This document shows, piece after piece, positions 5,127-22,744 of a DNA stretch of 64,000 nt; position 1 is the first letter of the stretch, and each line of letters opens with the position of its first letter. The notes beneath the pieces were generated by a model, which saw only the letters and a program-made list of their open reading frames with translations, was not told the origin of the DNA and did no database searches. The stretch lies in contig OY970323.1 of NCBI GenBank assembly GCA_963716985.1, positions 736,001 through 800,000 of the forward strand, given 5' to 3'. The DNA comes from an uncultured bacterium. Lineage in GTDB: Bacteria; Chlamydiota; Chlamydiia; Chlamydiales; SM23-39. The translations under genes were made by a program, and so were the position numbers.

Positions 5127-5134
5127 TCATTACC

Positions 5135-5154
5135 AGCATTATCAACATAATGCT
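5135..5154 (+). terminator. Hairpin after the porin gene
   Basis: AGCATTAT-CAAC-ATAATGCT perfect 8-bp stem just after the stop codon. Confidence 0.45.
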
Positions 5155-5165
5155 AGCAAGTTTTC

Positions 5166-5275
5166 GTGCGCCCGGCATGAAATCTTTCTGGGAGGTGAGG
5201 GTCTTCTATAGGCTTAGCGTGTCCTTGCGAAAAGAATGCGTGAAATTAATTTTGCATCTCTGTAGACTTCATGCC
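5166..5275 (+). mobile_element. Group II intron 5'-end remnant
   Basis: GTGCGCCCGGCATG, a typical bacterial group II intron start, 11 nt after a hairpin. GGCATGAA (5174-81) can pair with TTCATGCC (5268-75). Confidence 0.5.
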
Positions 5276-5288
5276 TTGAACCCGTTCA

Positions 5289-5720
5289 TTGTCTATGGAT
5301 ATTGCCGATAAAATTCGTAAAATCGAGGCCCTCATTGTAGGAGCTAAAAGTGACGGAGAACGACAGGCTGCCGAGTTTGCAAAACAACGCCTCCAAGAAA
5401 AAATCTCTGCTCAACCAATAGAGTATACTGTCAGACTCAACAGCCCTTGGAAAAAAAGACTGTTTGTTGCCATTTGCAGAAAGCACGCTCTTCACGCTTA
5501 TCGCTACATGCGGCAAAAACATACCACCACGATGATTCGAGTATCTCAACCTTTCATGGATTCGGTTTTATGGCCGGAGTTCAAAAAGTATGAAAGAATA
5601 CTCGACAAGTTAACGGACGAGATTTTAGAGGACCTCATTTCTAAAATTTACTTGGTGAAAGAAGAGGACGAAACTGTTATTGCCGGAGAACTTCCGATTA
5701 CGGAGACTGCAACTCTTTAA
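5289..5720 (+). CDS. Hypothetical protein with DUF2786-like N-terminus
   Basis: KIRKIEAL...GAKSDGERQAA N-terminal motif and WKKRLFVAICR...YRYMRQKHTT; clean 143-aa ORF. Confidence 0.6.
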   Translation: MSMDIADKIRKIEALIVGAKSDGERQAAEFAKQRLQEKISAQPIEYTVRLNSPWKKRLFVAICRKHALHAYRYMRQKHTTTMIRVSQPFMDSVLWPEFKKYERILDKLTDEILEDLISKIYLVKEEDETVIAGELPITETATL

Positions 5721-5979
5721 GTCTTTTCGGTTCGGGCAGCTTCTTAGACAGCTGTCTGTGTTTTCCGATGAACTGATTGGGGCGCGCGGTTCACCGAAAG
5801 GTTGATGACAGTAGTGTGCACGCTAAAATAAAATGCAATGAATACATTCCCATTTCTAACCGAAGTGTTCGCCGGCCCATCATGCGGCGCGCTCCCCACC
5901 CATACCAATTCTCTAGACACCCACCTCCGTCAACGCGTACACGGAATCTATCTCTAAGAGAAAATGGATTACAAAAAAG

Positions 5980-7893
5980 TTGCATTTTAAAAAAGCAGTC
6001 ATTAAATTTTTTTTGTCTTTATTGGATGTATGTATGGAATGCTCAGCCCAAGAAACTTTGGCTTTTGAATTTTTAAAAAAAGGCAATATCGGTCATGCGC
6101 GCGTTTTGTTTGAGCAATTATTGCAGAAGGGTTCCCTTGTGGCAAAAAAAGGCCTTGAGCAATGTAAAGAACAGTTCTTGCGCAAGTGTTATAAACAAAA
6201 AAAAGTAGATGATTTTTTAAGAGAGTCTGCGGGCATGGATTTTCTTGCGCCCGCCAGGGCCAGACTTTTAGGAAATAAGGCTTTGGAGGATTTGTCGCAA
6301 AAAGATAGCTTTGCAAAGTTCTTTTTGCATTCGAGTAAAAGAGATGCTTTTGTAGAAATGCGTCAAATTCCTGAGTGGAAAGAATATGCGGAAGGATGGA
6401 TCTCTTTATTAAAGTTGGACGCGGGTCGTGCCTATGCTTCTTTTCTTTCCTTAGAAAAAAAATGGCCCTATCATGCCAAACTGGGGCTTTGCCTGGCTGA
6501 TATCCTATCAAAGAAAAACCTTGAGGCGCAACAAAGAGTTGTCCATTTAAGGCCCATTATTTCTCAACATTTCCCTGAATTTACAAAAGCTTTGGGCTGT
6601 GAATCCGAGGATTCTATTATAGCGCAAAATTTGCGCTGGGGAAACCAGGAGGATTTAGAAAGGGTTTTGGAGATGCCGAACTCTTCGGAACATAGAGGAT
6701 TAATATCTTTGCGTCTGGGCGATCTGGAATGGGAAAACAAAGAAATTAGCAAAGCTAAATCCTATTGGCTTCATGCTAAAAAACTTTCAAGTGCTTTAGA
6801 AGTGGATGTGTTACAGAGACTTTTTGTTTGTGCATATGAGAGAGGGGAGGAATGCCGTGGGAATATTCATGAGCTATATCTGCTTCTTTATCGCAAAAAC
6901 AAATCTGATGCCAAAGAATTTTTGGAAACGGTGGTTTTCGAGTGTGAAAAAGCTGTAAATGGTGTTCCCGTTCCATTCTTAAAAGGAAAGTTTCAGTGGG
7001 AAAAACACGCTCCTTCCGAAGTGATGTTGCTCTATTTAAGTCAGCAATCTTTTGAGATGAAAGGATATCTACCCTATTTTGACAAGCCAAATAATGAAGG
7101 AAGGGATTTTTGGAAAGAAAACTTAAAGGTTTTGAATCAGGAATATTCCCTTTGTGAAAAATATTTAAGATTTAGAATTGACTGTGTATCTTTTTATGAC
7201 ATGCATGAAGAAAAAAGAAGAGCGTTATTTTCTTTGTTGCTAATGAATCCTTCCTTAAAAGAAGAACTGATCGGGCAGTATGTTCAAATGGCTTTATTGA
7301 CTGATGAAGAATGTATCGAGGAGGAATTAAAAAAACTTAGCGAGATTTTCCCTTCTGACTATGATTTGATGCGCCTACGAATTTATTTTGGCTTGGATTC
7401 TTTGGAAACTTTTGCTCTTGTGCTTTCGCCAACTCTTTACCGGGTTCTATGTTTACAAGTTGCTATCGATTGTGGCAAGAAACCAAAACTGCTAATGGAT
7501 TTGTCCGAATGCAAAAAAGATGCAGAAGCTTCCTTCCATCTGTTCGATGCCGTTTCACAGGGCTGTCTACCCGTAAGTAGTGTGATAAAAGTTTTCAATG
7601 CTCTGGTTGAAGAGCCACGAAAAATGTTTCGACGGATTTTTTATTATGGATTTCGGGAAATTGGACCTAAATTTATTGCCCATTGGAAAAAAAAATTTCC
7701 TACCTGTTGGGCTCCTCACTACTATAATGCTTTGCAGCTAGTGAAAAAAAACAAATTTTTTTTCGCAAAGCAGGAAATCAATGCTGCGCTGGAAAAAATT
7801 TCAAGAGAAGATATAGAATTCCACGACTTGGTGAACCTTAAAAACTTCATTGTTGGCGGAAATTTGTTTAATTTCTTGATGGAAGACTTATGA
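5980..7893 (+). CDS. Large alpha-helical/TPR-like protein, first gene of a chaperone-like operon (start may be ATG 6034)
   Basis: 637-aa ORF with TPR-like segments (AFEFLKKGNIGHARVLFEQLL; LGDLEWENKEISKAKSYW). Its stop overlaps the next ATG. Confidence 0.6.
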   Translation: MHFKKAVIKFFLSLLDVCMECSAQETLAFEFLKKGNIGHARVLFEQLLQKGSLVAKKGLEQCKEQFLRKCYKQKKVDDFLRESAGMDFLAPARARLLGNKALEDLSQKDSFAKFFLHSSKRDAFVEMRQIPEWKEYAEGWISLLKLDAGRAYASFLSLEKKWPYHAKLGLCLADILSKKNLEAQQRVVHLRPIISQHFPEFTKALGCESEDSIIAQNLRWGNQEDLERVLEMPNSSEHRGLISLRLGDLEWENKEISKAKSYWLHAKKLSSALEVDVLQRLFVCAYERGEECRGNIHELYLLLYRKNKSDAKEFLETVVFECEKAVNGVPVPFLKGKFQWEKHAPSEVMLLYLSQQSFEMKGYLPYFDKPNNEGRDFWKENLKVLNQEYSLCEKYLRFRIDCVSFYDMHEEKRRALFSLLLMNPSLKEELIGQYVQMALLTDEECIEEELKKLSEIFPSDYDLMRLRIYFGLDSLETFALVLSPTLYRVLCLQVAIDCGKKPKLLMDLSECKKDAEASFHLFDAVSQGCLPVSSVIKVFNALVEEPRKMFRRIFYYGFREIGPKFIAHWKKKFPTCWAPHYYNALQLVKKNKFFFAKQEINAALEKISREDIEFHDLVNLKNFIVGGNLFNFLMEDL

Positions 7894-11000: not shown

Positions 11001-11558
11001 TCAGGAATGTTGGGTAAAGTAGTTTAATTTTTTTAAGAAAGAATCAAATTTTTGGGGATGCCCTTCCCGAATAGACCACCTCTTAATTTCTCGAAGATCA
11101 ATTTTTTGAGAAATCTCTTTGCAAAGTGTTATGGCCTGATCTAGAGCCTGGTTGTCGCCCCAATGATAAAAGCTGGCAAGACGATCTTTCACACTATCTG
11201 TGGGAGTGAGCATTTTGATAATTCCTAGAGGAGTTTGACGATCTTCAAAATGATGGATCGGCTCGTTTCCAATGGAAACAGGAGGTGAAACGAATTCGAT
11301 AAAATATTGGCAATGGGGATGGCTGAAATATTTCCCTTTCTTCTGAAAGTCCAACTCATTTAAGGCTTTTGCAACTGTTTTCATGTCTTCGTAGGTTACA
11401 TAATCCAAGTCATAGGATTGATAGCGATTATGAGAATAAATGGAAACACAAGCGCCGCCTACTAAAACACTTTCTATCCCATGCTTTTTTAATTTTTCCG
11501 ATACGATGGCAGCAAGCTCTTCAAGGGTAATTTCTTTATCATTGATCTTTTTGTTCAT
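11001..11558 (-). CDS. Nucleotidyltransferase-fold protein, putative type IV-like TA toxin
   Basis: VLVGGACVSIYS...SYDLDYV (GG...DxD) Pol-beta superfamily motif. Confidence 0.7.
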   Translation of the reverse strand: MNKKINDKEITLEELAAIVSEKLKKHGIESVLVGGACVSIYSHNRYQSYDLDYVTYEDMKTVAKALNELDFQKKGKYFSHPHCQYFIEFVSPPVSIGNEPIHHFEDRQTPLGIIKMLTPTDSVKDRLASFYHWGDNQALDQAITLCKEISQKIDLREIKRWSIREGHPQKFDSFLKKLNYFTQHS

Positions 11559-11890
11559 AGAGGTTTTCCTTTTTTCCGAGGTCTTTTCCTGATCATCGGT
11601 TCATAATATTTATCCTTTATCTCTTGGGGGAGAAATGCATAAGCTTTTGTAAGAAAAGCTTTCAATTCTTGCAAAAAGGGATATCTGGGATTGAATTGAT
11701 ACCAGCGAGTTTTTCCTTCCAAAAAACTGACAATGATACCACCGGTTTCTAATCGATCTAAAACCTTCTGAAAGGGAGACAAGGCTTGTCCAAAAGTTCG
11801 GCGCAACTGTCCTCCATAACAACGATCATTGATCAAAAGATAAAAAAGAACTTTTTCTACGTTCTTCCCTCCGAAAATTGACTCTAGCAT
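11555..11890 (-). CDS. Winged-helix DNA-binding protein, putative antitoxin/autoregulator
   Basis: LSPFQKVLDRLETGGIIVSFLEGKTRWYQFNPRYP wHTH; ATGA overlap with the NTase gene. Confidence 0.75.
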   Translation of the reverse strand: MLESIFGGKNVEKVLFYLLINDRCYGGQLRRTFGQALSPFQKVLDRLETGGIIVSFLEGKTRWYQFNPRYPFLQELKAFLTKAYAFLPQEIKDKYYEPMIRKRPRKKGKPL

Positions 11891-11899
11891 AATGAACTT

Positions 11900-11936
11900 A
11901 CCTATATTTTAGGTTATATAACCTATAATATAGGTT
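11900..11936. promoter_or_regulatory. Tandem palindromic operators upstream of the wHTH-NTase operon
   Basis: ACCTATATTTTAGGT followed by AACCTATAATATAGGTT. Confidence 0.6.
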
Positions 11937-12012
11937 GAATGTTTATGAGGCAATTCAATTTTTTTAGCCTTTGTTAAGAACTGATAGAGGAGGAGGTTGA
12001 ATGTAATGTCAT

Positions 12013-12080
12013 TAAAAAGAAAAAGGCCGAGTTCGATAACCCGGCTGGAATGGAGGTGGGGATATGCATTCGGAACTTTT
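12013..12080 (-). repeat. tmRNA-3'-end junction repeat, copy 1 (att-like)
   Basis: AAAAAGGCCG...CCGGCT hairpin + TGGAGGTGGGGATA + TGCATTCGGAACTTTT; compare the tmRNA end at 22345-22395. Confidence 0.75.
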
Positions 12081-12108
12081 TCTTAGAAAAAAATCAAGAT
12101 TCCCGAAT

Positions 12109-12387
12109 TTAAATTAGGTGTTTGAGTTTGCCGTTTTTTTGGAGTGCTTTGCGTTGTTTTGTCCAATCCCACCAATTGGAAGATTCTCCTGTAGCAGCTT
12201 CATGAATAATTGCTGCAAAAACGTCCCATACGCAGGGATCTTGCCTTTTTTGCGTTCGCCTTTCGAGCTCTTTGAATAAGAAGGTCGGATCTTTAAGTGC
12301 TAGTTCTTCTACGGTATTGATTCCCAGAATGGATAAGTCTTTAAGGGTTGCTTTTCCTACATTTTTCAGGTCGATTAATTTTTTCAT
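12109..12387 (-). CDS. Helix-hairpin-helix protein (Cdd1/pathogenicity-locus family)
   Basis: LKNVGKATLKDLSILGI, QDPCVWDVF and NWWDWT motifs. Confidence 0.8.
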   Translation of the reverse strand: MKKLIDLKNVGKATLKDLSILGINTVEELALKDPTFLFKELERRTQKRQDPCVWDVFAAIIHEAATGESSNWWDWTKQRKALQKNGKLKHLI

Positions 12388-12390
12388 CCT

Positions 12391-12441
12391 ATTGGCAGCG
12401 CGGAAACCCACTCCTTTAGGGGTGGGAGGAAGCGCTGCTCC
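12391..12441. mobile_element. IS200/IS605-type terminal hairpin remnant
   Basis: GCAGCG..AAACCCACTCCTTTAGGGGTGGGAGGAAGCGCTGC imperfect palindrome. Confidence 0.5.
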
Positions 12442-12456
12442 TTTGTTAATTGTTAA

Positions 12457-12735
12457 CCCAAGTTTGCAGGCCCTCCTCGGAGAAGCCAGAAAAGTGGGGC
12501 ATATTCGGCACTACATCTTGAATTTCACAAGATCGTTTTGCGCGCTCCAAGAATTTGGGAAGATAGTCCCAAAGCTTTATATAATTCCCCCTGTTCGCCT
12601 TCAGCTTTCGAGGAACTGCGATGATACAGAATTCTCCCATTCTCCATGTTAGCTTGCGTGGTTACTCTAATCCGAGATCTCATGATTTTCCGCACTGTCT
12701 TCCAATGATAATGAATTCCTTTCTGCTGTAATTGA
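12457..12735 (-). pseudogene. IS1634-like transposase C-terminal remnant with terminal sequence
   Basis: YHWKTVRKIMRSRIRVTT...RSSSKAEGEQGELYKALGL resembles an IS1634 C-terminus; truncated at the junction repeat. Confidence 0.6.
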
Positions 12736-12750
12736 TAAAATGAATTGAGA

Positions 12751-12828
12751 ATAAAAAAGGCCAGGAATTTTCCTGGTCTTTTGGTATTTTTGGAGGCGGA
12801 GAGATGCATTGCAGAACTTTCAACTGGA
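12751..12828 (-). repeat. tmRNA-3'-end junction repeat, copy 2 (best preserved)
   Basis: ATAAAAAAGGCCAGGAATTTTCCTGGTC + TGGAGGCGGAGAGA (13/14 identical to the tmRNA end) + TGCATTGCAGAACTTTCAACTGGA. Confidence 0.85.
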
Positions 12829-13107
12829 TCGAAGCACTGAGAGCATTCAAATCCCAGGGAAATTGCACGAAATTTTCCAGTCATTGATTCTTAGTTATTT
12901 GTGTTTTTCAAACTGAGATCCAGTTGGGTTTGGAGATATGTTTGAAGAAGCACAAAATGTGCTTTTTGAGAGGAGAACTTTTTACGATAAAAAAAACAAG
13001 AAATTCTTCATGCAATCTCCCTGGTAAGAACGTGAAAGAAATGATCTTTTTTGAGTGAAAATTCATATAAAGGGGTTGGACGCAATACCTAAGCGGCAAA
13101 TAATTTA

Positions 13108-13749
13108 TCATATAATCGTCCTGGTATCTTGGCTCATCGCCTTGAGTTGATTATTTGCTTTGTTCCATTTTTCATCGATCAGATGTCCGCCATTTACAAA
13201 TAAAAAATACAAAGCAACAGCAGGAAAATTAAGGATAATCTCGAGGCGCTTCATAATCTCGCTTCCCAAAATGCGATTTCTTTCTAAAGCATTCAACGAA
13301 GCTTGTGAAAACTCAAAAACTGCTGCAAATTCACGAGTAGTTAATCCCAGAGATTTTCTAAAAGTGATCACATCTTTAATTGTTACTTTTCGTTCAAAGA
13401 TGGGGAAAAAAATGAATGAAGAGGGGCCTTTTCTGCCAATTGTAGATAAAAGAATAAGAGGATCGCGCTCTTTAGGATCCACCCCCATAGCCAAACAATA
13501 TTCCGGGTAGGCAGGATTTTGAAGAGAAGGGATGCGATCTTCCAGCGAAGGGAAGAGATGTGTGGAAACAAACTCTTTTTGAGTTAAGGGGAGCTCTGGG
13601 CCAAGCGGGATAACATTTTTTGCTTTAAAATAGTGGTCATCATAGGTAAAAACTAGTTTTTTTTTCCTTCGATATAGGGCTCCGACAGGTAGCATTGTTC
13701 TGCGTTTTTCCAAAAATATACGAACTCCAATAATTTTTAAACTTTGCAT
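13108..13749 (-). CDS. HipA N-terminal (HipS-like) domain fused to an XRE HTH, putative antitoxin
   Basis: VGAL...FTYDD.Y...PLGPELPL...LFPSLEDRIP, then FRKSLGLTTREFAAVFEFSQASLNALER HTH. Confidence 0.8.
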   Translation of the reverse strand: MQSLKIIGVRIFLEKRRTMLPVGALYRRKKKLVFTYDDHYFKAKNVIPLGPELPLTQKEFVSTHLFPSLEDRIPSLQNPAYPEYCLAMGVDPKERDPLILLSTIGRKGPSSFIFFPIFERKVTIKDVITFRKSLGLTTREFAAVFEFSQASLNALERNRILGSEIMKRLEIILNFPAVALYFLFVNGGHLIDEKWNKANNQLKAMSQDTRTII

Positions 13750-14639
13750 AGCTCCTCGCTTCGGCTTGTAATGAGACGCAAAAGAGCTTTTTGTCTTTTT
13801 TCACTAAGGTAACTTTTATCAAACAGGCTTTTAATTTTTTCTAATGAAAGCTGCTTTCGAAAACGGTCGACGACATCTTCATAACCCAGGCGATTCCATT
13901 CTCGGACATAATCTTTCATTGTTGGTTTGTCAGTTTCTTTAGTAAAGATAGCTCCTCTTGGTTGAAAATCTGCCCCCAATATGGAAGGGTCTTCTAAAGC
14001 TAAGGACGAGGGATTATCGTAAAAAGGAGTTAGGTGCATTGCTTTTGCAGATCGAATAAAACCTAAATTGCGGCCATGACGATCGTGATTCCCTATCAAA
14101 CTATCTGCCAAGGTAAGATAAGCAAACCTCTCTTGTTCAGCTCTTCTTCCGGTCTGCTTTCCAATGATATCAACAAGATTTTCACAATCGTAACTCATTT
14201 TGCTTTCTACTAGATGATAAAGATGAACGAGATTAGAGCTTGTTAATTCGGACATGAAATTTTTAGTAACAAAACAAAATTGATTTTCTGGAAATCTAAC
14301 TAAATAATAATCTGGTATGTGTATATTTAAGTTTTCAAAGATCTGATTGCATAAAAATTCTGTAGCAGGTAGCTCGGGGTATTCTTTCTGTTGAACTTTT
14401 AGAATATAGCTAACGTTCCCTAAGCGAGTAGAATATTTGCGATAAGCACCATTAAAAAAACTTATAGTTAATCTTTGATTTTCTTGCAGGTCGAGGGATT
14501 GGGATCTGGCAATAAGATCTAAAAATTTACAATCTTCGTGCAAACCAAACCATTCTTTAAAGCAACGATTATGTAGTCCATAACAAGATTCTTCATTCCT
14601 AGAGAGTGGTTGATGACAGTAACAACAAAAAATTTGCAT
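13737..14639 (-). CDS. HipA-family kinase (HipT-like, lacking the N-subdomain), putative toxin
   Basis: SFFNGAYRK, YILK, E.LCNQI, LIGNHDRHGRN and LTPFYD motifs; N-terminal CCYC..H..C; RBS before ATG 14639. Confidence 0.85.
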   Translation of the reverse strand: MQIFCCYCHQPLSRNEESCYGLHNRCFKEWFGLHEDCKFLDLIARSQSLDLQENQRLTISFFNGAYRKYSTRLGNVSYILKVQQKEYPELPATEFLCNQIFENLNIHIPDYYLVRFPENQFCFVTKNFMSELTSSNLVHLYHLVESKMSYDCENLVDIIGKQTGRRAEQERFAYLTLADSLIGNHDRHGRNLGFIRSAKAMHLTPFYDNPSSLALEDPSILGADFQPRGAIFTKETDKPTMKDYVREWNRLGYEDVVDRFRKQLSLEKIKSLFDKSYLSEKRQKALLRLITSRSEELCKV

Positions 14640-14670
14640 TGTGAGTTGTCCTTTCTTTTCATCATAAACA

Positions 14671-14719
14671 TGATACAATATTGTGTCAAGTTAAACATGA
14701 CACAATGTTGTGTCATGTT
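14671..14719. promoter_or_regulatory. Two tandem palindromic operators upstream of the hip operon
   Basis: TGATACAATATTGTGTCA and AACATGACACAATGTTGTGTCATGTT. Confidence 0.7.
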
Positions 14720-14820
14720 ATTTCTATATTGTTAATAATGAAAGGTTTGGCGCTGAAAAAATGGGCATGTCTTATCTGGGATTTGGACTTATTTTGCTCT
14801 CTTTGAACACAGTGGCATTT

Positions 14821-14866
14821 AAAAGAAAAAGGCCGAGGGGAGATGCATTCAGAACTTTTCAGTGGG
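14821..14866 (-). repeat. tmRNA-3'-end junction repeat, copy 3 (internally deleted)
   Basis: AAAAGAAAAAGGCCGAG + GGGAGA + TGCATTCAGAACTTTTCAGTGG. Confidence 0.7.
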
Positions 14867-15120
14867 ATAAGATTAAAACACCCATGAGTGCGCCTTCATC
14901 GCCTCACAATAGTCCATGAAAAGCCCTCTTGGATCCAAGATCAACAAATGTTGGCAAAATTTTAGCACAAGGCGCAGATCTGCTCGCTATAAAATGTTAT
15001 GAAGAGTTTGATTAAAAATGTTGGCAGCGCAGACAGACCGCGTATGCCGAGGATATTGCGTTACTTGAATCTCTCATAGATAGAGCAAAGTCAGCAGAAG
15101 ATATTTCTGAAAGACGGTGA

Positions 15121-15152
15121 ATAAAAAGGAGCATTCAGAACTTTTGACTGGA
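15121..15152 (-). repeat. tmRNA-3'-end junction repeat, copy 4 (further deleted)
   Basis: ATAAAAAGG + AGCATTCAGAACTTTTGACTGGA. Confidence 0.6.
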
Positions 15153-15211
15153 GAGGTTCCTCAATTCCAACTATGATAATTTCTAAAATTTAGTTTCAGA
15201 GGATTCTAGCC

Positions 15212-15394
15212 GTGTCAAATGGTGAAATCATTCTTTATACCACTGAAGATGGTCAAACTTCCATCCAACTTAGAGCCGAAGAGGGCACTGTTTGGTTAAC
15301 TCGAATGGAAATCGCAGACCTTTTTCAAACCACGCCGCAAAATATAACTCTTCACATACAAGGAGTTTGCGATGAAAACGAGGTGGATCTGGCG
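15212..15394 (+). pseudogene. RhuM-family protein N-terminal fragment, truncated by a MITE
   Basis: EIILYTTEDGQTSIQL...TVWLTRMEIADLFQTTPQNITLHI is the typical RhuM N-terminus. Confidence 0.8.
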
Positions 15395-15518
15395 GGCCTT
15401 GTTCACTTCGAGAGGGAAAACTTTCGATCAGTGGATGGCACAAGTCAGCAAAGTCGCCCTCATCATTGAAAAACAAAGTCAGTCGCATTAACAACTGACC
15501 GAAGAAGTGAACATGGCC
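15395..15518 (-). mobile_element. 124-bp MITE, copy A (IS1595/ISPna2-like ends)
   Basis: TIRs GGCC(A/T)TGTTCACTTC; inverted copy of 15721-15844. Confidence 0.9.
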
Positions 15519-15720
15519 ATATTGGATAGTAAGGGTGAAAGAGGACCTCCTTGCGGAGTTCCTTCTTCCGTAGGTTTTACAAGACCATCCTCCATAACTC
15601 CTGCTTGTAAAAATCTTCTTACCAGTAGGAGGATCTTTTTATCTTTTACCTGTCTTGCTATTCTTGCCATAAGCATATCATGATTAACCCTGTCGAAAAA
15701 CTTTTCCAAGTCAATGTCTA
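15519..15720 (-). pseudogene. Inverted internal fragment of a group II intron reverse transcriptase
   Basis: DIDLEKFFDRVNHD...GTPQGGPLSPLLSN on the minus strand; the frame continues on the plus strand after MITE copy B. Confidence 0.9.
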
Positions 15721-15844
15721 GGCCATGTTCACTTCTTCGGTCAGTTGTTAATGCGACTGACTTTGTTTTTCAATGATGAGGGCGACTTTGCTGACTTGTG
15801 CCATCCACTGATCGAAAGTTTTCCCTCTCGAAGTGAACAAGGCC
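15721..15844 (+). mobile_element. 124-bp MITE, copy B
   Basis: Same TIRs as copy A. Followed by TCCAATAT, whose reverse complement abuts copy A (8-bp TSD). Confidence 0.9.
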
Positions 15845-16584
15845 TCCAATATTATGCTGGACGATTTTGATAAAGAGCTCGAGAAAAGAGGCTTACGGTT
15901 TGTGAGATACGCGGATGACTGTAACACATACGTAAAGTCCGAGAAAGCAGGCAAACGTGTAATGGAAGCAACTGTAAGATATCTAATAGAAGAGCTCAAA
16001 CTCAAAGTCAACCAAAAGAAAAGTGCTGTAGATAACCCATGGAACCGTAAATTTTTAGGTTTTACTTTTACAAAAGAAGAAAATCAGATTACGGTTCATG
16101 GAAGTCGAGTGAAACGTTTAAAAGACAAAATAAGAGACTTAACCCAAAAGATGAGGGGCAGTAAGATCACCGATAGTATTCGGAAGAAAATAATGCCTAT
16201 CACTAGAGGCTGGGCTAATTATTTTGGCATAGCAGAAACACGTAGCATTTTTAAGACGTTGGATGGATGGATCAGACGTAAGATACGTGGGATTCTTTGG
16301 AGACAGTGGAAGACTCCTCATACTCGATATAAGCGTCTGAAAGCAGCGGGTCTAAAAGAGAGGGAAGCAAAGATAACGGCACATAGCAGTAAAGGTCCAT
16401 GGAGAATGTCCAGGGCACCTGGTGTGCATAAAGCTTTGTCGAACGAGAAGATCGAAACGATGGGTTATATATCAATGATGAGTATCGTTCAGGCTAGGTC
16501 ACAGTAATCATGAACCGCTGTATACGGTTCCGTACGTACAGTGGTGTGAGAGGACGGGGGCTTTAAAACCCCCTCCTACTCGAT
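15845..16584 (+). mobile_element. 3' part of a class C group II intron (RT C-terminus with YADD, maturase domain, DV-DVI)
   Basis: RYADD, FLGF and GWANYF motifs, stop at 16507; DV GAACCGCTGTATACG...CGTACAGTGGTGTGAGAGG; end CCTACTCGAT. Confidence 0.9.
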
Positions 16585-16636
16585 CGCTCGTCTTCATAAA
16601 AAATCTATCAATTCATTTGTCGGGACCTATAGTGCG

Positions 16637-16758
16637 ATTTTCGATGATGGGGAGCTGGAGTCGACTCGAGTTTGTCGGAAATTCCGACAAACTGCCGATG
16701 ACGGAAAGCTCTATGACGTAATTCACTACAACCTTGAGGGAACTCACCTTTTTTATTA
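16637..16758 (+). pseudogene. Second RhuM-like fragment
   Basis: Manual translation IFDDGELESTRVCRKFRQTADDGKLYDVIHYNLE. Confidence 0.6.
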
Positions 16759-16848
16759 AATTAAGAAGAGTCAAGATATTAGAGCGGGTTTTCCTCAGTA
16801 TGTCCATTTTTTCTGGACATGCTGAGGAAAAAATGCATAATAAAAGTT

Positions 16849-17466
16849 ATGGACTTTAATTTATTTAGACAAGAAACCGATTCGGAAGTATTTGATTATC
16901 AGTATCTTGCGGATCATTTTAGGAATTTAAAAAAACCAAGAGACAAGGTTACCTCTTTAGTTGCTGAAGGTAAGGTTCTTAGGGTAAAAAAGGGAATTTA
17001 CGTTTTTGGTGAAAGGTGGCGCAAAGCTCCTCTTTCATTAGAGATGGTGGCTAATGTGCTCTACGGTCCTTCTTGCGTTTCCTTTGAATATGCTCTGACT
17101 CGCTATGGTCTTCTTGCTGAGAGATCATCTGTGATCACATGTCTGACGATTGGCGATACGAAAACCTTTCAAACGCCGCTTGGAATCTTTGAATACCGAG
17201 CAACTGATAGGGAAAAATTTAAAATAGGCATAGAATATAGAGACTTGGGAAAAGAGGGAGGGTATCTGATCGCATCGAAAGAAAAAGCATTGGCGGATTT
17301 TGTATATCGAACACCTGGTATCCGAACTTTAGGGCAACTCCGCTATTATCTTTTTGAAGAAATGCGAGTGGATAAAACAATATTCGAGAAGTTAAATAAA
17401 GACGTTTTTCGCGCGATTGCAAAAGTTTATAAAAAAAAGAGCATTATGCTGCTGAGTCAATTATGA
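16849..17466 (+). CDS. AbiEi-like type IV TA antitoxin
   Basis: LRVKKGIYV, YGPSCVSFEYAL..YGL and ASKEKALAD motifs. Confidence 0.8.
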   Translation: MDFNLFRQETDSEVFDYQYLADHFRNLKKPRDKVTSLVAEGKVLRVKKGIYVFGERWRKAPLSLEMVANVLYGPSCVSFEYALTRYGLLAERSSVITCLTIGDTKTFQTPLGIFEYRATDREKFKIGIEYRDLGKEGGYLIASKEKALADFVYRTPGIRTLGQLRYYLFEEMRVDKTIFEKLNKDVFRAIAKVYKKKSIMLLSQL

Positions 17467-18335
17467 GCCAAGTCATTGAAGAAATGTTAAAAAATTACAC
17501 ACCTCGATCTAAAACTGATTATGAAGGCGCTATTCAGGAGATCATGCAAGAAATTACCTTGATGGGTTTGTGGAGGAGAAAATTTTTTGAACACGCAGCT
17601 TTTTATGGTGGAACCTCCCTTCGCATTTTGTATGGACTCAATCGATTTAGCGAGGATCTCGACTTCTCTCTTCTTAAACCAAATCCCCATTTCAATCTTC
17701 TGCCTTTTTTGAATGCGATTGAAGAGGAGTTGGAAATTTCGGGATTAAAAGTCACTGTGGATCATAAAATCAAACATCCTGAAGGATCGATCAGCTCCGC
17801 TTTTTTAAAAACGGGGACTTTGGAGACATTCATCCGGATTGGTTTAGATGAACAGCTAAAAAAAAATACGCAATCGACTGAGGTGATTAAACTGAAGCTT
17901 GAGGTCGACATTAATCCACCTCCAGGCTTTGAAACCGAAATCCGCTATCTTACAAGACCCTTTCCTTTTTCCGTGCGTACCTACGTTCCGGAGGATTTAT
18001 TCGCAGGAAAAATGCATGCCCTATTATGCCGACCTTATAAACTGAGAGTGAAGGGGAGAGACTGGTACGATCTCATTTGGTATATCTCCAAGGGATTTCA
18101 TCTGAACTTAACACATTTAGAAATGCGGATGCGGCAGTCTGGGCATTACAAAGAAAAAACCTGCCTCGCGCCAGAACAATTTTTGGCCTTAATGGAAAAT
18201 AAAATTGCTGGACTCGATGTGAAGGCTGCTCAAGAAGATCTCTGGCGGTTTATCCGCAATCCGCGTGAGATCGAAGGGTGGTCTAAACCATTTTTCCAAG
18301 ACCTCTTGAAACAGATTCAGTTTGTTCCAAATTGA
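17463..18335 (+). CDS. AbiEii/AbiGii nucleotidyltransferase toxin
   Basis: FYGGTSLRILYGLNRFSEDLDFSL, KLEVD, AGKMHA and KGRDWYD motifs; ATGA overlap with the antitoxin. Confidence 0.92.
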   Translation: MSQVIEEMLKNYTPRSKTDYEGAIQEIMQEITLMGLWRRKFFEHAAFYGGTSLRILYGLNRFSEDLDFSLLKPNPHFNLLPFLNAIEEELEISGLKVTVDHKIKHPEGSISSAFLKTGTLETFIRIGLDEQLKKNTQSTEVIKLKLEVDINPPPGFETEIRYLTRPFPFSVRTYVPEDLFAGKMHALLCRPYKLRVKGRDWYDLIWYISKGFHLNLTHLEMRMRQSGHYKEKTCLAPEQFLALMENKIAGLDVKAAQEDLWRFIRNPREIEGWSKPFFQDLLKQIQFVPN

Positions 18336-18510
18336 TAATCTCGACTTTATACATTTTTCGGGCGCATTCCCAAATTGTGGGTAGCAGAGTGAGTAAAAAA
18401 AATTCTTAATAAAAATGCCCCTAATACCCAAAAATAGCTATGGGCGCAAAATCCCGTTGGATTTCAGCATTTGGCATCCCGTTTCTGTGCTTGCTCAAGT
18501 CGCTTGACGT

Positions 18511-19327
18511 TCAGCAGCAAGCTGCTTGATTAAATTGTTGATGGACTGGGATTCCGATCAAGTGATCGGGTAGTTTTGGCATCTTGATAAGACGCTTGAC
18601 AATCGGGTGCAATTTGCCCTCCCTTTGTTCTGCATGTCTCAGCTTTTTCCTGACTTGCTTGGCTTCAATTTGAGCAAATCGTTCCGCAAGAGTATCGCAG
18701 CCACCCAAGATGATCTTTTCATACTTCTTGTTCTGAAGGTTTTTTATCAGCGGCGTATCGGCGAGCATGGTGGTCAATACATGCCCCAAAGTTTTCCCGC
18801 CTGTGCGCTTCCTGGAACCGCGATTAATCTCACGGAAGAATCTCTCCATCAAATTATTTGTTCGCTGTGGTTGGATCGTTATTGTCTGTCCTGCCTTCGT
18901 CGTTACAGCGATTGGTTTTGTGAAGAGCTTGTCCCAGTACTTTTTGATTTGTTGCACCATTTTTCTGCAGACCTGATCAGCTAGGCATTTCTGTTGTATC
19001 TCCTGAGAATTGATGAACTTTTTGACTTCCGCTTCCATGACTCCCATGTCGCAAGTCAAAGCATCGTCATTGAGCCCATCTGAACCTCCCGGCTCAGCAA
19101 TGCGCAGAATCTTTCGAAGCCGCTCGAAGTACTTCACTTTTTGCTCCATTTCAGCAACATGTTTCATCAGCATGGGGTTTTCAAGTACGGCATCCAATTC
19201 TTCTTGCACCCTCTGCAGATATCCATGAGACGGTGGTACGGCGTGAATGAGTGTTCTGACTTTTTGCATCCGCTGAATAAAAATAAGTTTTTCTCGATCG
19301 AAAGGGAAGCCATAGCCGGATAACTCT
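18511..19327 (-). pseudogene. 5'-truncated transposase (unclassified/ISNCY-like)
   Basis: ELSGYGFPFDR upstream of the listed ORF, KYWDKLF and QRTNNLMERFFR; the frame is cut at the IS200 left end. Confidence 0.65.
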
Positions 19328-19461
19328 CAATAGGTAAGCCACTGGTTTGACCAGTGGACTCTCAAGGCTTGGCCTTAAAATTCAGTAAAGAAGGAAACGA
19401 CAAACATATCTATACTCCTTTGGATGGCTTAGCGAGTCAACCAAAAGGAGTATAGAATATG

Positions 19462-21376
19462 GTGCGCCAAGAGAAGCTGCGCACTTCTACTGGTGAAAGT
19501 CCAGGCATAAAAAGTGGATAGCCACCACATTATGTAGCGAATCTTGCAACTCCGGAGGTAACAAAAGAGCTGAAGCGTAGATAGCGAAACATTCGAGCCA
19601 AAACCGTGAGGTGAATGCGTTAAGTCTCGAGAGGTATATCGTGCAAGCCGAAACTTTCGTATTAGGAGCAGGCAACAGATGGGAAGCGGGTCAAAATGGC
19701 GAAACCCTGCGATCATCAAGCACCGGGATATTAAGCATTGGCGAGCTTGTAGAGAAGTGTGACGGAACTTGGGAAGTCCTTATTGCTCTCCGAAGGGAGT
19801 ATTTGTGGTTCAAGCGCCATGAACGTAAGACTGCAAAGATGGGATAAGGATGGCGGAGTCCACCATAGTAGCGAGGAACCGAGTAACGATCGGGGAGCAA
19901 AGGGTGGATAGAACAGAAACGAACGAAAAGGTGGAAACAATGTCTGTACACAGCAAAGACAGATATACAGTGTCAATGAAGCTGGATCGTATAGGAGATC
20001 TTTCGGCAGGAAATCATGATCTGGTGTTCAATAATCTGGGACATCTTATCAACGAGGAAATGCTGATGAGAGCATTTGCACAGCTTGATGGAACTAAAGC
20101 TGTAGGAATTGATGGTATAACAAAAGAAGCATATGGCAAAAATCTGGAGGAAAATCTCCGAATGCTCGCTGCGAAAGTGCATCGGGCGCAATATGCGCCA
20201 CAACCATCAAAGATAGTTGAAATACCCAAAGCAGATGGAGGCAAAAGACCTCTGGCAATATCCTGCATAGAGGACAAATTGGTGCAGATGGCAGCGGGAG
20301 AGATTTTGAACAAAATCTATGAACCGCTCTTTCTGCCGAGTTCTTTTGGATATAGGCCCGGGAAAAGCTGCCATGATGCTATTACCGCTTTGCACCAAGC
20401 AGTATACGAGTGCAAAGATGGCGCTCTATTGGAGATTGATATTCGGAAGTATTTTAACTCTATTCCACATATGGAAATGGAGGCTATACTACAGAAGAAA
20501 ATCAACGATCCAAAATTCCTGAGGCTGATACATATTCTGTTGCAAGCAGAAACCATCACAAACGATGGGGTAGTGCAAAAGAATTTAGTCGGATGCCCAC
20601 AGGGATCGGTCACTTCACCGATTTTATCAAATATCTACCTACATGAAGTGGTGGATAGTTGGATAGAATCCATTCGAACATATCTCAAGGGAAAGATCTT
20701 TCCGATTCGTTTCTGCGATGATATGGTATTTGTATTCGAATGCAGTGAAGATGCGGAAAGGTTCTATAGAGCGTTTACCCAAAGGTTGCAGAAATATGGA
20801 CTTGCGGTTCACGAAGACAAGTCGCATCTGCACTCCTCGGGATCGAAAAGAATAGCAGAAATGGCGGCCAAGAAACAAAAGCTGCCTGTTTTCAAATTTC
20901 TGGGATTTACCTTCTTCTGGGAAAAAGCGCAGAAAGGGAACTTCTGGAGATTAAAAGTCCGCAGCAGAGGAGATCGGAAGCACTCGAAACTTCAGGGATT
21001 ATCAAAATTTCTGAAAGAGAATAAAGCCATGAAAACCTTGATAATGTTTCAACAGATACTGCCAATCATCAAAGGGTGGATCAACTATCATGCAGTGACC
21101 GACAACTCTAGAGCGGTAAACGGATTTATCTTCCAATGCGAAAGAGCTATCTTCAAATGGATCAACAGGAAAGGTGGCAGAAAGAAAATGAGTTGGGAGA
21201 AATTCGAGAAAGTTCTGGAAAAAGTGGGCTTTCCAATGAAGTGGAAAATCAAATGCATCATAGGAACTCCTAAGGTAATCAAAACCTAAAAGGACTGTTC
21301 GGGAGCCGGATGCGGGAAACCTGCAAGTCCTGGTTCTGAGGAGGGGGAAGCGGAGCAATCCGCTCCTCTACTCACC
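19462..21376 (+). mobile_element. Apparently full-length group II intron
   Basis: 5' GTGCG; DV GAGCCGGATGCGGGAAACCTGCAAGTCCTGGTTC; DVI with bulged A at 21370; removal restores the tnpA frame. Confidence 0.88.
19850..21289 (+). CDS. ltrA: Group II intron reverse transcriptase/maturase, no endonuclease domain (true start may be 19940)
   Basis: KAVGIDG, IPKADGGKRPL, SFGYRPG, EIDIRKYF, GCPQGS, RFCDD, FLGF and GWINYH motifs. Confidence 0.93.
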   Translation: MAESTIVARNRVTIGEQRVDRTETNEKVETMSVHSKDRYTVSMKLDRIGDLSAGNHDLVFNNLGHLINEEMLMRAFAQLDGTKAVGIDGITKEAYGKNLEENLRMLAAKVHRAQYAPQPSKIVEIPKADGGKRPLAISCIEDKLVQMAAGEILNKIYEPLFLPSSFGYRPGKSCHDAITALHQAVYECKDGALLEIDIRKYFNSIPHMEMEAILQKKINDPKFLRLIHILLQAETITNDGVVQKNLVGCPQGSVTSPILSNIYLHEVVDSWIESIRTYLKGKIFPIRFCDDMVFVFECSEDAERFYRAFTQRLQKYGLAVHEDKSHLHSSGSKRIAEMAAKKQKLPVFKFLGFTFFWEKAQKGNFWRLKVRSRGDRKHSKLQGLSKFLKENKAMKTLIMFQQILPIIKGWINYHAVTDNSRAVNGFIFQCERAIFKWINRKGGRKKMSWEKFEKVLEKVGFPMKWKIKCIIGTPKVIKT

Positions 21377-21814
21377 AACGATACAACATCGTCATATAAT
21401 AGTTTAGCCCATTCCAGGTGGGATTGCAAATTCCACGTGGTATTTATCCCAAAATGCAGGAAAGAGAAATTGTATGGTCAAGTAAGAAAATTTTTAGGTC
21501 CCGTTTTTCGAGAATTGGCTCGTCAAAAAGAATGCACAATTATGGAGGGGAAAATGATGCCTGACCATGTCCACATGTTGATTCAAATTCCTCCCAAGTA
21601 TCCAGCCGCATCAGTGATAGGGTACATAAAAGGAAAAAGTGCAATCGCAGTTGCTCGTCAATTTCGTGGTAAAAAGAGAAATTTCACAGGAGAACAGTTG
21701 TGGGCTCGAGGGTATGCAATATCAACCGTTGGATTTGAAGTAGAGAAAATCCGAGCATACATCAAAGATCAGGAGCGCTTAGACAGTCAAAATGAAGAAG
21801 AGGGTTCGTTTTAA
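21377..21814 (+). CDS. tnpA: IS200 Y1 transposase, exon 2 (exon 1 is the ATG at 19459-19461)
   Basis: NDTTSSYNSLAHSRWDCKFHVVFIPKCR...DHVHML (HUH)...YIKGKS...WARGY...YIKDQ. Confidence 0.9.
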   Translation, partial: NDTTSSYNSLAHSRWDCKFHVVFIPKCRKEKLYGQVRKFLGPVFRELARQKECTIMEGKMMPDHVHMLIQIPPKYPAASVIGYIKGKSAIAVARQFRGKKRNFTGEQLWARGYAISTVGFEVEKIRAYIKDQERLDSQNEEEGSF

Positions 21815-21844
21815 CATCTAAAATTAAAGCTCGTTAGGCCATCT

Positions 21845-21943
21845 GCAGCCCTTGGGGCTGCTCACTACCATATCCAGGCAAGTCCAAGTGGCTTGGTAAA
21901 AAAAGTTGTTAGGAGTTCCTTGGCAGCCCATAGGGCTGCTCAC
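21845..21943. repeat. Two REP-like palindromes in the IS200 right end
   Basis: GCAGCCCTTGGGGCTGCTCAC (21845) and GCAGCCCATAGGGCTGCTCAC (21923). Confidence 0.7.
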
Positions 21944-21981
21944 AACTATCAAGCCCCTCGCTTTGCGAGGGCGTCATGACT

Positions 21982-22328
21982 GCCGTTTTTAGGTTCAACG
22001 TGATCGCGTAGGATGTGTTCGATGAGATTTTTATAAACCCATTGGAGGTACCATGGAAGATTAATTAAGCTGCTTTCATCGAATGCAAAATAGTCTTCTT
22101 CTCCGCAAAAGCTATCAATTGACACTGGGATTGGTGGACGGTTGGTTTTTTTATCAAACCTAGTGCTCTGTCATAGTTAAAATTTAGGATTATAAGTTTG
22201 GCAACGGTCGGCATAAACTCAAGTCAATTTATCCTAAAATTAAAGAATGGCAGAGCACTAGCAGTTTGTTTTTCATTGATTCCAAAGTTTCTAATGTGAA
22301 ATTGCGGAACGTAGTGTCCATATGCCAT
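21982..22328 (-). pseudogene. DUF4238-like gene, interrupted by a MITE and truncated by IS200
   Basis: MAYGHYVPQFHIRNF start. Removing the MITE restores ...QTARFDKKTNRPPIPVSIDSFCGEEDYF... Confidence 0.7.
22163..22258. mobile_element. 96-bp MITE with TA target duplication (IS630-like)
   Basis: TA|GTGCTCTGTCAT...ATGGCAGAGCAC|TA in a CTAG context; excision restores the reading frame. Confidence 0.8.
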
Positions 22329-22344
22329 TACTATTTTTCCTTCT

Positions 22345-22372
22345 ATAAAAAAGGCCGGGAGATTTCCCAGCT
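22345..22372 (-). terminator. tmRNA intrinsic terminator
   Basis: Minus strand AGCTGGGA-AATC-TCCCGGCC-TTTTTT. Confidence 0.75.
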
Positions 22373-22381
22373 CTGTAATTT

Positions 22382-22744
22382 TGGAGGTGGAGAGAATCGA
22401 ACTCTCGTCCTCAGTAAACTCCATATTCATGACTACATGCTTAGCATCTTAGGGTAGATCGACTTTGCTGCAAGACGCAAGCACTTCAAGTCGAGCCTTC
22501 TTTCTTTGTCTCGAAGGGCTCCTAAAAGAAGAAGAGAAAAACCTTCATGCCAGGGTCGTGACGGTAGATCCCAAGACTCCTGGTCAGGTCTATGGGCTAC
22601 CGAGCGCATAAAACTGTTAGGTCTTACGCAGCCAATGCCAATTTAGGTTCGGCAATTAATGTTTTATCGGATTTTTAAGAGGCCAACCGACGTCCTCTGC
22701 ATGCCACGGATACTTTATTTCCGAGTCGAAACCGTTACACCCCC
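22382..22744 (-). ncRNA. ssrA: tmRNA; tag reading frame AEPKLALAA* at 22653-22624
   Basis: 5' GGGGGTGTAACGGTTTCGAC; 3' GGACGAGAGTTCGATTCTCTCCACCTCCA; tag ends in LAA; next to ileS as in Chlamydia. Confidence 0.95.

Follow-up and report, generated by a model that had tools for sequence, protein, structure and literature searches.

Tandem cassettes behind the tmRNA gene of a Chlamydiales bacterium and the large serine recombinase family that probably left their junctions

The genome of an uncultured bacterium of the order Chlamydiales (one contig, 2.07 Mb, 44% G+C, 99.5% complete; hereafter G000) carries a tandem array of small gene cassettes behind ssrA, the gene for transfer-messenger RNA (tmRNA), delimited by repeated junctions that are the subject of this report. 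The array lies in the window analysed here, a stretch of 64 kb (genome positions 736001-800000), and coordinates are those of the window unless given as genome positions. ssrA, the integration target, is on the minus strand (22382..22744; ARAGORN; Rfam RF00023, 153.6 bits) and encodes the tag AEPKLALAA. At its live end (22345..22395, minus strand), the attL junction, the last 14 nucleotides (nt) of the tmRNA are followed by a terminator (22345-22375) that comes from the newest unit. Four copies of a composite junction lie further along the array, all on the plus strand and facing ssrA. When complete, the junction consists on that strand of a minus-strand terminator hairpin, the reverse complement of the last 14 nt of the tmRNA (the core), and a 21-nt arm (GCATTCAGAACTTTTGAYTGG). 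Copy 1, the outermost (12013..12085), has a terminator, the reverse complement of the tmRNA end as TGGAGGTGGGGATA, and an arm with a diverged 3' half; copy 2 (12751..12828) has a two-way terminator, the tmRNA end as TGGAGGCGGAGAGA, and an arm with a 1-nt insertion. The two inner junctions are damaged: copy 3 (14821..14866) keeps a terminator start of the copy-1 type, about 6 nt of the tmRNA end and an intact arm, and copy 4 (15121..15152) is a perfect arm from which the tmRNA end has been deleted entirely, followed by a promoter-like site (TGGAGA-17-TATGAT, 15149-15177) that leads into a fragment of a RhuM gene.

Terminator hairpins are predicted on the minus strand at 12045-12026 (copy 1) and 12776-12761 (copy 2), and by alignment the tmRNA parts of these two copies differ from the ssrA end by 1-3 changes. 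With at most one mismatch allowed, a 14-mer of the arm (GCATTCRGAACTTT) occurs three times in the window versus 0.10 times expected, and none of 100 shuffles reached three. A first-pass annotation of this DNA had listed four such copies on one strand, and all four were found with the composite structure that it described; its reading of them as attachment-site junctions at the tmRNA 3' end is supported by their anatomy and by their occurrence above chance. As in ssrA islands, the units stand in tandem behind ssrA between direct repeats of its 3' end (copies 1 and 2 and the live end share 14 nt), and a conserved non-ssrA motif lies on the island side of the repeat (the 21-nt arm, present in four of four copies).

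The intervals between junctions had been proposed to be separate units with unrelated cargo, and Pfam and tblastn searches support this. Unit 1 encodes a Cdd1 (helix-hairpin-helix) protein (12109..12411, minus strand; PF11731, E = 5e-24). Unit 2 encodes a HipA-like pair and an open reading frame (ORF) of 67 amino acids (aa) (12908..14678, minus strand; Pfam), in the order HipA_C kinase-like gene (13737-14678), HipA N-terminal (Couple_hipA)-HTH_3 fusion (13108-13749), and the short ORF. This layout (13108-14719), with the HipA_C gene preceding the Couple_hipA-HTH_3 fusion gene, is unusual; a strong promoter-like site (TTGACA-17-TATGAT, 14689-14661) overlaps a 26-nt palindrome (14694-14719), and both HipA families adjoin arms again at other loci (L187, L237). 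Unit 3 is a 250-bp relic that contains a remnant of a RhuM C-terminus (14944..15093, plus strand; residues 283-333 of full RhuM; tblastn, 43% identity, E = 3e-5). Unit 4, a stretch of 7.2 kb, starts with only the N-terminal 60 residues of RhuM (15212..15391, plus strand; tblastn, 75% identity), the start codon lying 81 nt past the arm as in other RhuM cassettes; the gene is cut off by a group II intron 3' fragment (15833..16584, plus strand; Pfam; Rfam RF00029) composed of a C-terminal reverse transcriptase/maturase ORF and domains V-VI. There follow an AbiEi-like/AbiEii toxin-antitoxin pair (16819..18335, plus strand; PF08843, E = 5.6e-32; PF13338, weak), an ORF with a weak Pfam match to DUF2813 (18511..19269), and two later invaders (19496..21814, plus strand; Rfam RF02005; Pfam), namely a group II intron, whose reverse transcriptase (19850-21289) has 479 aa, and a Y1 transposase gene of the IS200 type (21437-21814). 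RhuM, AbiE and DUF4238 genes had been assigned to this interval: the AbiE pair stands, RhuM is present only as a relic, and the DUF4238 label for the ORF at 18511-19269 gives way to the weak DUF2813 match, the DUF4238 gene lying in a displaced array at 1.739 Mb in the genome (described below).

Two group II introns of different families share the cassette interval of unit 4, the fragment at 15833-16584 and an apparently complete one at 19496-21400 (RF02005), the latter multi-copy as judged by the depth and loose ends of public contigs. About 85 nt past the ssrA terminator, a 30-nt word (22232-22262) that has at least 25 copies in the genome and coincides with break points of public contigs (22160, 22262) is probably the end of a multi-copy IS200-type insertion sequence (IS) with the transposase gene at 21437-21814. 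On the far side of copy 1, a DUF2204-type nucleotidyltransferase gene and a small partner gene (11001..11890, minus strand; Pfam; clustering) are a probable older unit; by clustering, each of the two families adjoins arms at 7 other loci. Apart from the group II intron reverse transcriptases and the IS200-type transposase, no recombinase was found among the 22 ORFs scanned (8.7-26 kb), and genome-wide profile searches with PF00589 and PF00239 gave no match inside 736001-800000, in agreement with the earlier statement that the window contains no integrase.

Elsewhere in the genome the arm recurs behind a second RNA gene. Its 14-mer has six exact copies (reversed control, 0), of which the three outside the window are preceded by a tRNA-Tyr end (genome position 669458) or by a tmRNA end (1740528 and 1742976), and each of two copies with one mismatch (665283 and 667297) also stands behind a tRNA-Tyr end. 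The junctions at 665283, 667297 and 669458 form an array downstream of tRNA-Tyr in which the arm adjoins the last 15 nt of the tRNA, and in the tmRNA and tRNA-Tyr junctions alike identity to the RNA gene begins at the T-loop/T-stem boundary. The motif is not restricted to ssrA: the genome search shows that tRNA-Tyr ends serve as well. The first unit of the tRNA-Tyr array (654418-669480; L009) is about 3 kb long and closes with part of a tRNA-Tyr, from the anticodon loop onwards, a different junction type, after which come the three arm-type junctions; the cargo of this array includes IS66, a Schlafen/AlbA_2 ATPase, a group II intron reverse transcriptase, hydrolases and an outer-membrane beta-barrel protein.

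The junctions at 1740528 and 1742976 are complete, have a tmRNA end, and lie 1 Mb from ssrA in the opposite orientation, in a set that ends beside an ATP/ADP translocase gene, a gene typical of chlamydiae; this arrangement suggests a piece of the ssrA array displaced by a large inversion of roughly 1 Mb. Measured from the terminus, which GC skew places near genome position 1.2 Mb, the ssrA site and the displaced set are comparably far away. The displaced array (1738673-1743010; L010 5673-10010) contains TGCGTAA repeats with a 24-nt tmRNA end, DUF4238 and NYN genes, and the two arm-type junctions. Another hotspot, at tRNA-Met (858784-970107), contains six genes for tyrosine integrases along with five displaced tRNA-Met fragments of 45 nt; in front of some of the fragments stands a tRNA-like 5' half that has a TATGAT box of its own.

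The arm is conserved across the order. The exact 14-mer occurs in 42 copies in 16 of 41 genomes of the order (reversed control, 0), and two further scans, of a genome collection and of metagenome contigs, enlarged the junction set; all counts resulting from them are lower bounds, and many of the relatives' genomes are incomplete metagenome-assembled genomes. Among the matches listed from the genome collection, a tmRNA or tRNA-Tyr end precedes 47 of 86 distinct hits, and the remainder are chance matches in other phyla; core plus arm had no match in viral contigs. After deduplication, chlamydia-type genomes and metagenome contigs together hold at least 245 distinct junctions, at least 206 of tmRNA type and at least 39 of tRNA-Tyr type, a ratio biased by the metagenome scan pattern, which was a tmRNA-type core plus arm. 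The consensus of these junctions (at least 245 distinct) is TGGAGGTGGAGAGAc joined to GCATTCAGAACTTTTgAtTgG, and between families the arm does not differ. Past the core, 118 of the 245 junctions listed have a terminator-like hairpin, versus 7 of 245 in shuffles. From junction to junction the median spacing is 1557 bp, and 78% of 69 intervals measure 3 kb or less (among the matches listed).

Cargo is diverse across the order and includes acetyltransferases, toxin-antitoxin pairs, hydrolases, regulators and methyltransferases. RhuM is the commonest, with 24 ORFs at 23 loci among the matches listed (e.g., L291 8913-9932 and L039 15966-17261); its start codon is 69-88 nt past the arm in 10 cases, and in 7 cases RhuM is on the opposite strand with its stop codon (...KF, then TGA) within the arm. 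G001, a genome of the same genus as G000 (about 79% DNA identity), has a single unrelated 1.2-kb unit at ssrA, and at the distal tRNA-Tyr junction the two genomes share only about 36 nt (arm plus core), with different sequences on both flanks. Thus, cassette content varies with breaks at the tmRNA end and at the junctions, as had been anticipated for relatives, and between these two members of one genus it differs wholly. Locus L043 of another relative, G040, has two junctions with a tmRNA-type core inside a tRNA-Tyr array, between two tRNA-Tyr copies (11585-14871), a layout that suggests exchange between the two arrays via the shared arm. Sharing of a whole unit between genomes was seen in one pair (L092 and L285, 90% identity); it was rejected as a cassette transfer between unrelated genomes because the neighbouring units match too and the two are probably related strains.

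The arm is the native coding tail (3' end) of a large serine recombinase (LSR) gene, because in relatives an LSR ORF reads across core and arm; by inference, it would also be one half-site of the attP of this enzyme. An intact gene at locus L275 (12712-14199, 495 aa) lies convergent to tmRNA; it extends about 30 nt into the 3' end of the live tmRNA, and its product closes with ...CPTNWRWRESNSRP. A 172-aa ORF next to it (L275 12163-12681) is a candidate for the directionality factor. The protein has the domain order of an LSR (PF00239, Resolvase; PF07508, Recombinase; PF13408, Zn_ribbon_recom), matches the catalytic domain of TP901-1 integrase weakly, and displays near its N-terminus an ARVSS motif, the serine of which is presumably the nucleophile. 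The far boundary of the element that carries it is an arm-plus-core junction at a distance of 7.7 kb, and a second, frameshifted copy at the same locus (5012-6564) ends at a junction, where core and arm read ...CPTNWRWRDAFRTFDWSRVKIP.... The tail that runs into a live tmRNA reads ...NWRWRESNSRP, and at junctions the family ends ...NWRWRDAFRTFDW over core and arm, which bears out, in relatives, the earlier suggestion that the arm might be the tail of a recombinase ORF crossing its own att site.

In a search with the 495-aa protein, 44 of 150 genomes of the order had the LSR or pieces of it. Coordinate arithmetic places the LSR 3' end against or over a convergent RNA-gene 3' end in 21 of the 30 loci returned (tmRNA, 12; tRNA-Tyr, 3; tRNA-Asn, 4; tRNA-Met, 1; tRNA-Ala, 1), and no such RNA gene was called at the other 9. 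LSR presence was also counted at the loci fetched via the arm, with a remnant threshold of at least 20 aa. Among the matches listed there, an LSR of at least 400 aa adjoins 4 of 57 live tmRNA or tRNA-Tyr ends and 1 of 207 junctions, one of 100-399 aa adjoins 1 live end and 2 junctions, a remnant of 20-99 aa adjoins 3 live ends and 5 junctions, and 49 live ends and 199 junctions (96%) have no adjacent LSR; LSR remnants are tallied at 8 of 207 junctions and at 4 of 57 live ends in relatives. The open stretch upstream in the DAFRTF frame has a median of 15 codons and extends to at least 100 codons in 4 of 251 junctions listed. At four loci (L127 2290-2580, L117, L078 and L111) the arm leads into about 200 nt of conserved sequence, of which the first part is a continuation of the LSR tail (SRVKIPSVLTSS...) and the remainder is conserved non-coding sequence; the stretch has no Rfam match, and the arm region was rejected as a candidate small RNA.

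With the anatomy of the junctions, their conservation throughout the order, and an LSR gene that reads across the site, the repeats in the window are probably the scars of repeated site-specific insertion at the ssrA 3' end by one LSR family widespread in Chlamydiales. A circular element would carry an attP made up of the arm, a copy of the last 14 nt of the tmRNA, and downstream sequence of its own, often with a terminator. The LSR would exchange strands at the boundary of arm and tmRNA end, which is the T-loop/T-stem boundary; the tmRNA gene would receive the incoming 3' end, often with a new terminator, and the old 3' end would be pushed outward with the arm now in front of it, so that repeated insertion would build an array in which the outermost unit is the oldest. 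Where an element carries the enzyme, its LSR gene is at the tmRNA-proximal end, convergent to tmRNA, with its last codons crossing the site, and the arm would double as half-site and coding tail. Catalysis by this LSR, the exact point of crossover and the movement of recombinase-less units in trans are deduced from sequence. Such units would depend on an LSR from another source, and for excision on a directionality factor as well, and their mobilisation in trans is plausible; according to the available excerpt of a published account of LSRs (PMC12286644), two short sites suffice for integration and excision needs a separate factor.

Several points weigh against this interpretation. The P' side just outside the tmRNA end is not conserved between units, which leaves the discrimination of attP from attB unexplained. 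The sample of junctions is biased, the arm itself having been the query. Many junctions carry an outer 190-nt module with TGCGTAA repeats that belongs to tyrosine-integrase elements; at least two element families therefore share the site, and some units may derive from another enzyme. Parts of the stretch are present in 12 public runs from 4 studies, and the contigs of 4 runs that were compared contained no true joint of an excision or integration event, rare forms being invisible in contigs. One apparent joint, from 12024 to 14840, was rejected as an excision: the 37 intervening letters match, by eye, the paralogous junction at 1.743 Mb, and the shorter side is 20 letters long.

The enzyme was not found in the genome studied. 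The 495-aa LSR as a query matched nowhere in G000 or in G001, and tblastn with four LSR fragment ORFs gave no match in the window and a sole match in the genome, a 45-aa tail remnant at a tRNA-Tyr junction (665249-665383). At the live ssrA end, reading of the sequence shows a TAA directly preceding the tmRNA end in the recombinase frame, and so no recombinase tail is present at this junction. No LSR gene was found next to attL on the opposite strand in the window or the genome, whereas the full gene has this position at 4 of the 57 live ends listed in relatives, and no integrase lies beside the regenerated RNA-gene end at this ssrA as in a tyrosine-integrase island, the nearest PF00589 match being at genome position 804454, outside the window.

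The array in G000 is most likely a static, partly decayed record, because a cognate LSR is unmatched in a 99.5%-complete single-contig genome, two junctions out of four no longer have the tmRNA part, neither RhuM cassette is more than a relic, and the region has been invaded by introns and an IS. The same observations make it unlikely that an integron-like system is active here, with cassettes now excised, shuffled and reinserted by a recombinase from elsewhere in the cell or from a co-resident element, as does the rest of the recombinase complement: the only PF00239 match in the genome is a 205-aa open frame at 1.917 Mb, and the six tyrosine integrases of the tRNA type belong to tRNA-Met clades and are located at tRNA-Met sites that have a 45-nt repeat. 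Such activity would be consistent with the completeness of copies 1 and 2 and of the junctions at 1.7405 and 1.7430 Mb, with the retention of an arm identical across families by the 96% of junction-bounded units listed across the order that lack an LSR remnant, and with a possible plasmid, which would lie outside the single-contig assembly.

Tyrosine integrases adjacent to tRNA genes form a family present in 60 of 151 genomes of the order, and those of P4-like elements (integrase plus primase-helicase), which are found at tmRNA and tRNA-Tyr in relatives, are a very improbable source of the junctions. The integrase gene is 150-330 nt from the tRNA-Tyr core at four junctions of one relative (G041), another (G137) has the order tmRNA, integrase, about 17 kb, and arm plus core, and the outer 190-nt module is present in 24 junctions, its TGCGTAA repeats matching the interval between tmRNA and integrase in G137; however, the gene and the repeats are always on the side of the core away from the arm, and hence are part of the adjacent, older unit. 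The distal junction of these elements is of a separate type, with TGCGTAA repeats, about 70 nt, and a 24-nt tmRNA end that includes the T-loop, and lacking the 21-nt arm (G000 1738673-1738769; L291 8091-8185). Tyrosine integrase sequence occurs in only 3 of 148 junction-bearing loci among the matches listed, and the arm is LSR coding sequence; with the LSR ORF reading across core and arm and the integrase always on the outer side, the tyrosine integrase was rejected as the maker of the junctions. It is scarcely credible that the units owe their movement to host XerC/XerD or, following DNA uptake, to homologous recombination between junctions: G001 and G016 have arrays with two PF00589 matches each, in Xer-like open frames (281-321 aa), and the tmRNA-core block inside the G040 tRNA-Tyr array and the ssrA-array piece 1 Mb off suggest recombination between junctions, but homologous exchange is unable to create duplicated tmRNA ends, for which the LSR accounts directly, a search of the genome with two dif consensus motifs (up to 8 mismatches) brought up nothing convincingly dif-like, a palindrome scan around the terminus was likewise negative, and by eye the junction has no 11-6-11 dif-like layout.

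Insertion at the end of an RNA gene, probably by an LSR, also sets these arrays apart from integrons, which comprise the tyrosine recombinase gene intI, an attI site, a cassette promoter, and attC sites that are imperfect palindromes recombined as folded single strands. Like integrons, the chlamydial arrays are one-directional, occupy a fixed site, and consist mostly of recombinase-less cassettes of 1-3 genes that end in a common recombination site, with cargo rich in toxin-antitoxin pairs, acetyltransferases and defence genes. Unlike integrons, they have no intI beside the array, no attI and no folded attC; the hairpins at the junctions are tmRNA terminators only, their sequence differing between units, recombination takes place where an RNA gene ends, and the candidate enzyme is of the serine type. 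The first-pass annotation had called the array integron-like, a description that fails as to mechanism: the array belongs with serine-recombinase ssrA islands and with integrase-less units like the cis-mobilizable elements (CIMEs) discussed below. The Mx8 gene intP/intX and the SSV1 integrase gene span their own attP, so that integration cuts the 3' end and the integrated copy has another C-terminus. Those are tyrosine recombinases, in contrast to the chlamydial LSR, for which the antisense strand of a tmRNA or tRNA gene supplies the new tail.

In the available part of PMC5704250, CIMEs are defined as decayed integrative and conjugative or integrative and mobilizable elements that have kept attL and attR and lost their integration and transfer genes. 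Units 12086-12750 and 12829-14820 of the window have junctions on both sides and no recombinase, as that definition specifies, and the resemblance extends to position, recombinase-less units standing in a row with related elements behind the 3' end of a tRNA-type gene (PMC5704250); unlike CIMEs as defined in that source, the chlamydial units retain a recombinase trace at just 8 of 207 junctions listed, so that decay is demonstrated for few of them. No description of such arrays in Chlamydiae was found in the literature searched, which included the accessible part of PMC5010888.

The closest known system is, by analogy, that of the Dehalococcoides ssrA genomic islands, which, as set out in the accessible portion of McMurdie et al. 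2011 (PMC3146451), have a serine integrase (DsiB), a 20-bp ssrA repeat, and a conserved 15-bp motif beside the repeat; they insert at the T-loop, a gene for a 540-aa serine recombinase lies on the reverse strand next to attL, and 15 of 31 islands are without the integration module and were proposed to be cis-mobilizable elements. As far as that portion describes them, these islands share with the chlamydial arrays the tandem units behind ssrA, the direct repeats of the ssrA 3' end, the non-ssrA motif upstream of the repeat, insertion in the T-loop region, and (in the relatives of G000) the reverse-strand LSR next to attL, a likeness that is drawn from the island descriptions. By the same descriptions, the Dehalococcoides islands are larger (about 12 kb, versus a median spacing of 1.6 kb here), and the chlamydial units have no six-gene integration module and, at 96% of the junctions listed, no recombinase remnant. 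The chlamydial LSR ORF, unlike what is described for the islands, overlaps the target gene, so that integration alters its C-terminal tail, and the chlamydial arm serves both tmRNA and tRNA-Tyr, the enzyme family being found also at tRNA-Asn, tRNA-Met and tRNA-Ala.

Environmental chlamydiae live inside amoebae and other hosts, and obligate intracellular bacteria are thought to have few routes of gene exchange; to our knowledge, the acquisition of accessory and defence genes by environmental chlamydiae is poorly understood. The window itself is of modest interest, as a decayed instance of a system with a published parallel in Dehalococcoides. The order as a whole offers a fixed landing site behind tmRNA, and a second behind tRNA-Tyr, where small cassettes bearing toxin-antitoxin, RhuM, acetyltransferase, hydrolase and regulator genes accumulate at one very conserved 35-base site, and it indicates a candidate enzyme, a compact LSR encoded where tmRNA and tRNA genes end, with a reading frame that crosses the enzyme's own site. 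The short-site requirement of LSRs, as stated in the available excerpt of PMC12286644, makes the proposed mechanism directly testable and of possible interest as a tool. The two tails of the LSR permit a more tentative proposal, possible though doubtful: a free or overtaken element would encode the tail ...WRWRDAFRTFDW..., and a copy at a live RNA gene the antisense-read ...WRWRESNSRP, a swap that could report integration to the enzyme, with a minority of 'driver' elements servicing an order-wide pool of recombinase-less units of one to three genes at ssrA, tRNA-Tyr and other tRNA genes. If true, obligate intracellular bacteria would possess in this system an equivalent of the integron that is built on a serine recombinase.

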